From contig OX597822.1 in NCBI GenBank assembly GCA_951406725.2, positions 10,354,001-10,418,000 of the forward strand: DNA of 64,000 nucleotides, in the 5' to 3' direction. The number at the start of each line of letters is the position of its first letter. Position 1 is the stretch's first letter. Below are positions 39,367-62,253 of this stretch, piece after piece. A program made the translations under genes and the position numbers. Origin of the DNA: Octopus vulgaris (taxonomy: Eukaryota). A model generated the notes under the pieces. The model was not told where the DNA came from. It ran no database searches and worked only from the letters and a program-made list of their open reading frames with translations.

Positions 39367-39596
39367 TACCGGAGTAAACACATAAATGTGAAACAAGTTG
39401 GAAAAAAGAGTACTCAAATACCAGAGGTAGAGTAATACGCTTTATTTAAAAGCAGCAGAAATTTAACAAAAGCTATTACTCGGAGTTTCACGTTCCCGTT
39501 CGTCGGACAGTTTTGTTAAAAAAAAAATATCCGATGAGCAGGAACGTGAAACTCCGAGTAACAGGTTTTGTTAAATTCCTGCTGCCTTTAAATAAA

Positions 39597-39597
<1 letters not shown>
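39367..39597. mobile_element. Palindromic Penelope-like element with head-to-head hammerhead motifs (diverged copy)
   Basis: Arms about 39440-39514 and 39523-39597. Minus arm: ctgt-CCGACGA-acg-ggaa-cgt-GAAACTCCGAGTA-atag. Plus arm: CCGATGA-gc-aggaac-gt-GAAACTCCGAGTA-acag. Homologous to 41572-41803. Confidence 0.75.
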
Positions 39598-39681
<84 letters not shown>

Positions 39682-40194: not shown

Positions 40195-40465
40195 GTGACG
40201 AAAAGTTACTGGAAAAACGATATAAGTATTTGCTTTGGAACACCTTTTCATCCAAATCCGATGATTGTCGTACGCTGATGACAGGTCAAAATCTAGAAAC
40301 TGCAGTCCGTGCGTATAGCTTAGGTTGACGAGGGAAAGGTGACCTCCCTTTGCAAATACCATAAGGGCACAGAAGGAGTGCCTAAAGCCAGCTGGAGACG
40401 ATGTTCTCCTGGGGCCACAAGCTACAGTAACACCCACCCTTAGTGGTTCGCCATATTGAGATGAC
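40195..40465 (-). mobile_element. Non-LTR retrotransposon reverse transcriptase fragment, degenerate
   Basis: PAGFRHS...FLDFDLSSAYDNHRI resembles the RT motifs QxGFR and FxDLxxAYD. Confidence 0.6.
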
Positions 40466-41174: not shown

Positions 41175-41525
<351 letters not shown>

Positions 41526-41676
41526 CTATATACATGTATACAAACATATATATATATATATATATATATATACCGGAGTAAACACATAAATGTGAAACAA
41601 GGTGGAAAAAAGAGTACTCAAATACCAGTGGTAGAGTAATATGCTTTATTTTAAGCAGCAGAAAATTCAACAAAAT

Positions 41677-41714
41677 CTGTTACTCTGAGTTTCTCGTTGC
41701 CGTTCATCAGACAG
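41677..41714 (-). ncRNA. Minimal type-I hammerhead ribozyme motif (sense in the Pitx pre-mRNA)
   Basis: Exact reverse complement of 41731-41768. Confidence 0.7.
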
Positions 41715-41730
41715 TTTTTGCTAGAAAAAA

Positions 41731-41768
41731 CTGTCTGATGAACGGCAACGAGAAACTCAGAGTAACAG
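41731..41768 (+). ncRNA. Minimal type-I hammerhead ribozyme motif
   Basis: Stem I ctgt/acag; core CTGATGA (41735-41741); stem II a-cg-GCAA-cg-a; GAAA; stem III ACT-cag-AGT; predicted cleavage after GUA at 41764. The first stem II position is an A.A mismatch. Confidence 0.7.
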
Positions 41769-42129
41769 ATTTTGTTGAATTTTCTGCTGCTTAAAATAAA
41801 GTATATATATATATATATATATTTGTAAAAAATGAAGTTTGAAAATGCTGCAATATTATACAATTTTAAATTTTTATATATACATTATAACATGTTTCAG
41901 TTCCTGAAATGAACCTTATCAAAAAAAGTTATATATAAAAAAATTTATATATAAAAAAAGACAGCTCATGCCGTCAAACACAAGAAATTCATTTACAATG
42001 TACAACGGAGTCAGACATCTTAAAGTTCAAATATAGTTTGAAGTAAGTTCATTCATGCTATATGTTCAAAGTGTTCGATGCATATATATATATATATATA
42101 TATAAACATAATAAATAATAGGGTAATAA

Positions 42130-43511
<1,382 letters not shown>

Positions 43512-57321: not shown

Positions 57322-59117
57322 TGTGTGTGTGTGTGTGTGCCTCTGTGTGTGTGTGTGTGTGTGTGTATGTGTGTGCGTGTATGTGTGTGTGTATTTTATT
57401 TATTTGCCAGTACGGCTAGAATGCTAGTATTCACTTGTCACTAGTGATGTACTATCGCTCTCATATTCTCATATTTGCTTATATATATACATACAGGGAG
57501 AGAAAGAGAGAGTGAGAGAAAGAGAGGTAGAGAGAGAAAATGGTAGCAGGTGGGGGTCAGTAGAATGCGACTTGGACAGAAGCTGAGGTTTTCTCTTCCT
57601 TGGTCGGGTCATGTACATGAGTGTACATGCTGGGAGAACCGAAATACCCAGCGATCCGATGATACAACACTGACGATGGCTGCAAGTATTGTATCGCTAG
57701 ATGCATTTGAAACTATTACGAGAAAGTTGTGTAGATTCAAATGTGGAAAGACCTTCATTGCAATAGGGAAATATTCCTTATCGATAACGGGTATGAAAAC
57801 TATCCAACTTGAGCTATGAATGATACCATCAAACTAGACATGCGTCTCTGCGTTGTTATGCTTTATCGACTATAAACAATAATAAATTTTGTCGTTTATA
57901 GCCCACAACGAACGGCAAATGATAAATTTGCTGGTGTGTGCAAAGCTTTGTAATACTGTTTGTACGATTTTGATTAATTTATGTCTGTAATTTTCAGAAC
58001 ATATGGTGTAGCTTTTAAACACTCGGCATAGCTTTTCATGTAAAGGAAAAATACTGCTATATATCATGTTGCATTTGAAATGAGTATATGAACAGCTATG
58101 ATATATCGTGAATAATTACTTATTATTAAAGTGGATTTGTTTTCAAATTTCTTCACTCTTAAGCTCATTATGTACAATAATATAATGCAGGATAATATTA
58201 TCATATAATTAGCGGCAGTATACTTTCCAAATTATCACATCATATCACGAATTTAATACATTGAAGCAGTTCGCTTCACAAGAATGCAATATCTGGCTTC
58301 TGGCTGTTGCGTGGTACCTTCGGCAAGTTTCATCTCCTGTATCCCCAGACAGACCAATGCTCATGTGAGTGAATTTGATAGTTGGAAACTGCGTAGAGAA
58401 CCGTTGTATATGCTTGCATGCCTAATACATGCATATATGTCGGTGAATTAAATAAAAACACACCATTAGGCTACGAATCATATCATCGGGTCGCAGAACG
58501 CACGGGTTTCTGCGTCGTTAGCTTTCATCAGTTAAGGACGCCAAATTAGTCGTTCACAGAAACGCATATAGTGGAATCAAAGGTGTGGGGCGAGAAGAAA
58601 AACAGCAGAGGTTTCGTTAAAAAAATGTTCCGTTAAAAAAAAAGAAAAGAAAAATACAGAGAGCCATAAAATATTCGAATATTAAACAAAATATGTGGAT
58701 TAGATTCTACATAGGCCTTTGGGGGATGTGGGCTTAGTGAAGAATATATAAACACGAAAGATGTGGTTAATAGACCAGAAAGCTCAAACTAACCGAGCAA
58801 TAAGTACCTCATCCCATAAATATACATGTGTAAATTAATTCTGTACGGGTGTATTTTGAAAGATTTTTTTTATCCTTTCTAGTAATTTATTTTTCAGTCT
58901 TCCTTGAGCAGTTTTTATGGAAATCTTTTGGAAATTTCGTCACATATTTACAAACCATTCCACTGTTAAACTAGCTTTTAACTCTTTACTGACTAGATTC
59001 GCAATGAAAATTCATATCTTACATGCTTTATATTAAATTTGTATATCGTAAAGTGTTTGGATAGGAATTTGCAATAGAGCAAATATTTCTTTTGATTAAG
59101 TTGATGATTGTAACATA

Positions 59118-62011: not shown

Positions 62012-62253
62012 TTAATAAATAAAAATATATGGTAAATAAATAAACAAACGACATGGCGTATACTGAGGTAGAACTGGACGGGAGACAGACACAGAAGGTC
62101 CCTAATTCTTCATAAGTTATCAACCAATTGGTAATACTCAGTTTCGCACGAAGAATTAAGGGCCTTCTCTGTCTCTCTCCCCTCCGGTTGTACACTCACC
62201 ATACGTTATGCCATTTGTTTATTTGCCACACATTTTTTTCATTTATGACACAT
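62012..62253. repeat. Imperfect long hairpin (MITE-like foldback)
   Basis: agaaggtccctaattcttc (62093-62111) pairs with gaagaattaagggccttct (62150-62168); pairing extends outward to aaataaacaaa/tttgtttattt. Confidence 0.65.

Follow-up and report, generated by a model that had tools for sequence, protein, structure and literature searches.

What are two mirrored hammerhead motifs doing next to the splice acceptor of a homeobox exon? The question is raised by a short palindromic element in the genome of Octopus vulgaris, which lies in a window of 64,000 nt (contig OX597822.1, positions 10,354,001 to 10,418,000). A sequence-only reading had suggested either a ribozyme released from its duplex by A-to-I editing or the replication unit of a small non-autonomous retroelement. 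We compared the element with its copies elsewhere in the genome, with the coding element from which it derives and with its immediate surroundings (Table 1). Statements about published work refer to the accessible portions of the papers cited.

The core of the element is a perfect inverted repeat of 76 bp (41644-41719 and 41726-41801) with a 6-nt loop, GCTAGA. Taken outwards into the TA flank, the palindrome measures 84 nt with 98% self-match; its folding z-score is -26, and none of 200 shuffles folded equally well. The long and short arms overlap by 1 nt. The initial description of the element holds at this level: the arm coordinates match, (TA)n lies on both sides, a hammerhead motif can be matched on each strand, its cut sites are predicted at the same positions, and stem II does have an A.A mismatch at its base. 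The distance to the homeobox acceptor, given as about 100 nt, is 97 nt from the end of the element to the acceptor G at 41474 and 169 nt from the palindrome proper.

Table 1. Coordinates of the features discussed, in positions of the window.
Feature	Position	Strand	Remarks
Older copy of the same Hydra-clade family	39368..39602	-	86% identity over 237 nt; about 2 kb away
Host homeobox exon	41265..41473	-	Pfam Homeodomain, E 2e-15
(TA)n target tract, tail side	41545..41571	.	
Tail of the Penelope-like element (PLE)	41572..41643 (72 nt)	-	first bases of the next unit's 5' UTR
Long arm	41644..41726 (83 nt)	-	5'-truncated PLE terminal repeat; hammerhead motif and AATAAA inside
Mirror hammerhead motif	41677..41714	- (host-gene strand)	cut predicted after 41681
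Head-to-head junction	41715..41730	.	one of several recurrent forms
Short arm	41726..41801 (76 nt)	+	inverted 5'-truncated copy without tail; AATAAAG end abuts (TA)n
Minimal type I hammerhead motif	41731..41768	+	4-bp helix I, CUGAUGA, 2-bp stem II, GAAA; cut predicted after 41764
(TA)n target tract, untailed side	41802..41822	.	doubles as the 3' TA run of another PLE fragment
3'-end fragment of an unrelated PLE family (781-aa RT/GIY-YIG ORF, Neptune-type linker)	41823..42085	-	extent past 41990 judged by eye

Both strands carry the letters CTGT-CTGATGA-A.CG(GCAA)CG.A-GAAA-stem III-GTA-ACAG. The core CUGANGA..GAAA..UH is present together with helix I, as in a minimal type I hammerhead; stem II is 2 bp with the mismatch at its base, and the motif has neither the G10.1-C11.1 pair nor a stable helix II. 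Across subfamilies, position 11.1 is occupied by A, G or U. Helix III is near-palindromic and forms an 8-bp dimer of -7.4 kcal/mol in the folding model. The motif thus resembles the minimal PLE hammerheads of Cervera and De la Pena (2014, PMC4209133) in its short helix I and in a palindromic helix III suiting dimers, but differs from them in the missing G10.1-C11.1 pair and in a stem II of 2 bp rather than 6-8. Pairs of such motifs on opposite strands, 100-700 bp apart, were already noted in the same paper. An Rfam scan gave 57 matches up to E 10 without a hammerhead family among them; the top-ranking ones were generic microRNA hairpins with scores under the gathering thresholds.

The element is highly multicopy. 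A genome-wide search at the DNA level yielded 702 candidates. Those scored, 40 in number, are 98-100% identical over nearly the full length, and all 30 loci shown lie in (TA)n, with a TA tract on the tail side in every one (30/30). The parent was located through the hammerhead pattern. A degenerate version of it matched the genome 6388 times, often as opposite-strand pairs; in the first 100 matches the spacing of the pairs varied between 48 and 4178 nt. The long pairs flank a coding element, the parent PLE. The route through the Pfam GIY-YIG domain returned other PLE families; across the loci found that way (30, plus 20 longer stretches) the element appeared only once, as a separate short insertion, apart from one weak 50-nt match. 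A search with the parent protein gave at least 85 matches at 96-100% identity, many of the loci having a 727-aa open frame.

In eight long loci the parent matches the arm and tail of the window element at 98.5-100% identity. The tail is identical at 68 of 68 nt in L203, L204, L205, L206 and L208, the 68-nt core of the arm shows 100% identity with the parent, and in full-length copies the parent ORF begins 19-20 nt past the tail. This identity supports the earlier assignment of the hammerhead to the Penelope-like terminal-repeat type. The 727-aa frame contains QFDI, PMG and YRDD followed by GVVY..YTG, that is, a reverse transcriptase with a C-terminal GIY-YIG-like endonuclease. It matches the RT/GIY-YIG protein of L061 (BLASTP E 1e-7), a member of the 781-aa-ORF family on which Pfam finds RVT_1 and GIY-YIG, and its Atlas neighbours (0.96-0.99) carry HTH_animal, GIY-YIG and RVT_1. 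Pfam returned 0 families for a 507-aa part of the parent protein, and a PDB sequence search gave no meaningful match.

Craig et al. (2021, PMC8557442) characterized Hydra-clade PLEs by RWK, DKT, a CxCx5C linker, CxxC and CxH. In the parent we found LRWK at 52, DKT at 129 (DKG to DKT), CRLCLLE at 683 and CRH at 711, corresponding to the CxxC and CxH that flank the conserved E and N; the CCHH pattern had no match in the 727-aa protein. The linker reads CNC..C in 6 of 26 readings and CNF..C in 20 of 26, counts that include overlapping loci. In L132 and related loci the second linker cysteine, residue 580, is the one replaced by phenylalanine in these 20 readings. The parent also carries its hammerhead in a terminal repeat and inserts into (TA)n. 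The ORF with its C-terminal endonuclease, RWK, DKT, CxxC and CxH, the lack of CCHH, the terminal-repeat hammerhead and the (TA)n target are all likenesses to Hydra-clade PLEs (PMC8557442). By these motifs and by a by-eye likeness to the published Hydra alignment, we assign the parent to the Hydra clade.

The supplement of that study, as far as accessible, also places the family among its relatives. A coral Hydra sequence, in the record before Hydra-1_Obim, agrees with the parent family in the helix I and helix III letters that surround the hammerhead core. The parent unit is about 3.44 kb, whereas Hydra-clade PLEs are given as under 3 kb. Hydra-1_Obim has a different hammerhead and a different 3' end from the parent family, and neither of two 11-nt words from the parent family's hammerhead was found in the accessible supplement; the family is therefore distinct from Hydra-1_Obim. 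The head-to-head layout itself is published for PLEs (PMC8557442, PMC3846280, PMC2377424). As in Penelope of Drosophila virilis and Pen2a of Adineta (PMC3846280, PMC2377424), an inverted 5'-truncated copy, a tail at one end and a short overlap at the junction are seen; unlike there, both copies in the window are so short that only the inverted repeat remains, and the tail is 72 nt rather than 30-40. The window element is a new PLE family member in an already published layout. Non-LTR retrozymes (bioRxiv 10.64898/2026.07.22.740005) are likewise non-coding, PLE-derived and equipped with a type I hammerhead, but they are head-to-tail tandems with at least two hammerheads in the same direction, whereas the window holds a dispersed single head-to-head hairpin. 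As a single head-to-head unit with no head-to-tail tandem, the element is ruled out as a non-LTR retrozyme.

How such hairpins arise can be approached through their junctions. The genome contains 716 short palindromes whose helix I ends lie 0-30 nt apart. A hand count of the first 50 gave 9 of the window form, 8 of a perfect CTAG form, 6 of an AATCTAG form and 27 spread over 23 others. The 36-nt junction of the window has 100 exact copies and its 16-nt junction 194; the first 60 of the latter fall into haplotypes of 22, 10, 8, 7 and 3 copies plus 10 singletons; 21 carry the tail on the long arm and 38 on the short arm, and 1 could not be parsed. Since five haplotypes share this junction and either arm may bear the tail, the copies appear to form independently and not from a master, and repeated independent formation at a hotspot is the simplest reading of these genome copies. 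This result speaks against the replication unit with a fixed junction envisaged by the sequence-only reading, which had added that random inversion junctions would mark the copies as insertion by-products only. The junctions do vary, largely as that alternative supposed; they are not random, however, but clustered at one site.

In these 60 copies the two arms of a copy agree at 341 of 360 diagnostic sites; over 1000 shuffles the agreement averaged 190 and never exceeded 231. Gene conversion between arms could account for part of it. Long copies were seen for four haplotypes (65, 10, 1 and 1); for two common older haplotypes, the loci examined included no long parent. Overall, the element very probably consists of two 5'-truncated PLE terminal-repeat copies joined head to head in (TA)n, likely the product of an abortive insertion from parent RNA and not of self-copying.

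We then counted where the arms end. Of the 3517 arms in the youngest subfamily, the 100 that come first by contig order were used; apparent ends past 205 nt, where indels break the alignment, were left out of the counts. Within 87 nt of the 3' end, 54 of the 100 arms terminate, so that about half belong to the short class, unlike the situation in Penelope and Adineta Pen2a. The ends are sharply concentrated: of 74 arms still at risk, 28 end 77-87 nt from the 3' end, i.e. within 11 nt, and only 4 of the remaining 46 end in the following 118 nt, the other 42 being longer (Fisher p 2e-21). The long arm in the window begins one base inside this site, and its length of 83 nt is typical for its junction type. 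The wall lies at CC-ATTCTAG, which fits the initiator pattern YYANWYY. ATTCTAG without the preceding C of the parent occurs in 288 arms; among the first 30, 7 are solo copies that directly follow (TA)n and one is a long copy with a point change. Solo copies that end at the stop site indicate that the stop needs no partner arm. At the base before the site, where a copied cap would leave G, all of G, T and A occur, and most of the G could derive from the partner arm. The site coincides exactly with the 5' base of an extended helix I, which makes a transcription start indistinguishable from a structural stop in these data; an RNA-structure stop or a processed RNA end could alternatively cause the pile-up.

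A second regularity concerns the tail. Inverted pairs, short or long, have exactly one tail in 32 of 34 cases and two in 2 of 34 (p 3e-8 against independence), and one of the two tail-tail pairs consists of two read-through internal repeats. Among 30 copies, two have tails at both ends, L021 (G000:C25:36893777-36894060) and L025 (C24:37635999-37636283); these are full-length palindromes of about 300 bp and exceptions to the one-tail rule. In the literature searched, for the most part without subscription papers and Repbase, we found no description of the stop-site pile-up or of a counted one-tail rule, and both may be new. The PLE literature, as accessible, treats the origin of head-to-head repeats and one-sided tails as open.

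The sharp pile-up of ends and the single tail per pair are what one would expect if a single RNA were primed twice and the cDNAs ran off its 5' end. We infer this from the genome copies. The parent protein would nick both strands of (TA)n, and two cDNAs would be primed on one RNA, one at the AATAAAG end and the other 72 nt further 3', at the tail end. With priming in the 5' terminal repeat, both cDNAs would run off the RNA after 75-86 nt, at a 5' end that is probably a transcription start within the initiator-like CC-ATTCT. The 3' ends of the cDNAs would then be joined through microhomology of 1-6 nt; the hammerhead would merely lie within the copied stretch. More generally, we suggest as a tentative model, slightly more doubtful than probable, that PLEs prime twice on one RNA, at either end of the tail and from opposite target strands, that a monomer transcript yields such a "strong-stop" hairpin, and that only tandem read-through RNA yields long copies.

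Published biochemistry on Poseidon of Anolis carolinensis (Frangieh et al. 2024, PMC11167929) offers precedents for several of these steps. The Poseidon protein cleaves and extends both target strands in vitro, two internal start sites of reverse transcription bound the tail, and reverse transcription requires RNA downstream of the start sites. The protein is predicted to form a dimer, and its hammerhead is dispensable for insertion. Poseidon shares an AT-rich target with the window element and belongs to another clade than the Hydra-type parent; the accessible text gives no treatment of head-to-head short products or of a run-off site. A transcription start inside the terminal repeat is described for two other PLEs (including PMC2377424).

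In the main alternative, a by-product of the same parent would form when the cDNA folds back and primes itself, giving the inverted arm, with the tail later trimmed from one side. Self-priming has been proposed for palindromes at PLE inverted junctions (PMC3846280), and resolution by the endonuclease has been proposed for the tail (PMC8557442). Self-complementary junctions are common in our data (a perfect CTAG in 8 of 50; AATT in 42 copies), and the agreement between arms is accounted for too. Nevertheless, we consider this origin unlikely. The window junction allows only the long arm to be made first, yet 38 of the 59 parsed copies bear their tail on the short arm. A tail on the short arm alone means that plain fold-back is insufficient and that an extra trimming step is needed. 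Moreover, helix I, the best fold-back site inside the cDNA, was used in 1 copy genome-wide, and the start sites observed in vitro agree with both ends of the tail (PMC11167929).

Still less probable is a short non-autonomous element in which a master hairpin is transcribed and copied in trans, the replication unit of the sequence-only reading. The 100 exact junction copies would suit it, as would the 22 of 60 copies that share the window haplotype, many of them identical, and both-tailed hairpins exist; non-autonomous PLEs are already known from the accessible literature. Some secondary hairpin copying inside the youngest haplotype may have occurred. However, the window junction makes up only 100 of the 716 short palindromes, it is found across haplotypes with the tail on either side, and no single fixed structure is common to the copies. 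An edited hairpin template is expected to leave an excess of A-to-G, and none was found in the one-arm changes of the first 60 of the 194 junction copies: changes of the editing type number 10 for A>G and 3 for T>C, below the 28 of G>A and the 12 of C>T. The initiator-like A is lost from the window junction, and the ORF-start region, which reverse transcriptase needs in vitro (PMC11167929), is absent. Finally, the haplotype table points to window-type hairpins interleaving with long parents.

The folding energies bear on the proposed ribozyme switch; they come from a nearest-neighbour model in which inosine is approximated. In the read-through transcript the hairpin is favoured over the hammerhead fold by 79-80 kcal/mol, the value for a single arm being 4.7, so the contention that the hammerhead is trapped in a duplex is reproduced by the model (a gap of about 80 kcal/mol). 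In the host pre-mRNA the hammerhead would be buried in the 76-bp duplex, with no predicted cutting. With the core spared by fiat, a gap of 51 kcal/mol remains when all editable A are treated as G, and one of 22 kcal/mol when editable A are barred from pairing; five editable A lie in the core itself, and the chance that all escape 50% editing is 0.03. That ADAR opens the duplex so that the hammerhead folds and cuts the homeobox pre-mRNA, a proposal to which the 51 A of the perfect duplex, the intronic position close to the acceptor, the heavy editing of palindromic repeats in other animals and the very high hyper-editing in octopus (PMC5625713) lend some appeal, is highly improbable, since modelled editing never makes the hammerhead fold competitive, heavy editing would strike the five core A, the motif has only a 2-bp stem II without G10.1-C11.1, minimal PLE hammerheads were inactive as monomers (PMC4209133), cleavage by a PLE hammerhead required PLE protein (PMC11167929), and the insertion is very young, with identical copies on other contigs, and sits inside the TA run of another repeat. 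The hairpin is likely an ADAR substrate. Its editing is plausible (PMC5625713), whereas gated cleavage is implausible; rather than forming a switch under the control of editing, the mirrored hammerheads are probably leftovers.

The surroundings place the insertion among other repeats. We found no link between the palindrome element and the host homeobox gene, the exon peptide of which is presumably Pitx-type. Three of four runs contain a contig of 1508-1509 nt with the homeobox exon as an inner piece. The listed differences of the element include those at 41676 and 41694, which are subfamily variants also seen in the large run X15. The adjacent PLE fragment matches 10 of 20 loci of the 781-aa-ORF family at 87-89% over 41823-41990, and the insertion site was probably chosen for the TA run that ends this fragment. 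The 781-aa-ORF family (L061-L072), which has multiplied recently, has a linker of the form CxxxxCxxC and a 3' UTR repeated in tandem; its end yielded no canonical hammerhead core. The older copy of the Hydra-clade family has the same tail and hairpin layout and the same orientation with a different junction; A-U replaces the A.A at its stem II base, and C stands at core position 4. Both family copies carry AATAAA on the host-gene strand, at 41650 and 39446 (-), the former preceding the homeobox acceptor by 176 nt. These are possible cryptic polyadenylation signals, of which the one at 41650 would be buried in the hairpin.

The window contains further elements of comparable form. At 42552-42906 lies a second (TA)-flanked element with a one-sided extension of about 75 nt and inverted arms of 112 nt at 92%. 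It is multicopy (2039 candidates, of which 40 were scored, at 88-94%), its partner arms are variable, and the CTGATGA..GAAA motif was not found in it; it is probably a short product of another PLE family. A decayed palindrome with 74% self-match over 194 nt lies among microsatellites at 62038-62224. Further CTGATGA..GAAA motifs occur at 40275 (+), beyond which the region is a repeat, and at 58531 (-), and are possibly the ends of other PLE families.

The locus itself is ordinary, one among hundreds of similar insertions. Its modest value lies in belonging to a young family with thousands of copies, from which countable rules can be drawn: a sharp stop, a single tail for each pair, and either arm as its bearer. 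Such rules separate double priming from self-priming. That the parent targets (TA)n despite an altered linker also bears on the proposed connection between the linker and target choice. If double priming with run-off is correct, the genome copies would map a transcription start to the base, and both the one-tail rule and the need for tandems would be explained. Insertions of this kind would also have seeded hundreds to thousands of perfect hairpins, prime substrates for ADAR, and such hairpins may supply double-stranded RNA behind the high A-to-I editing of this animal group.
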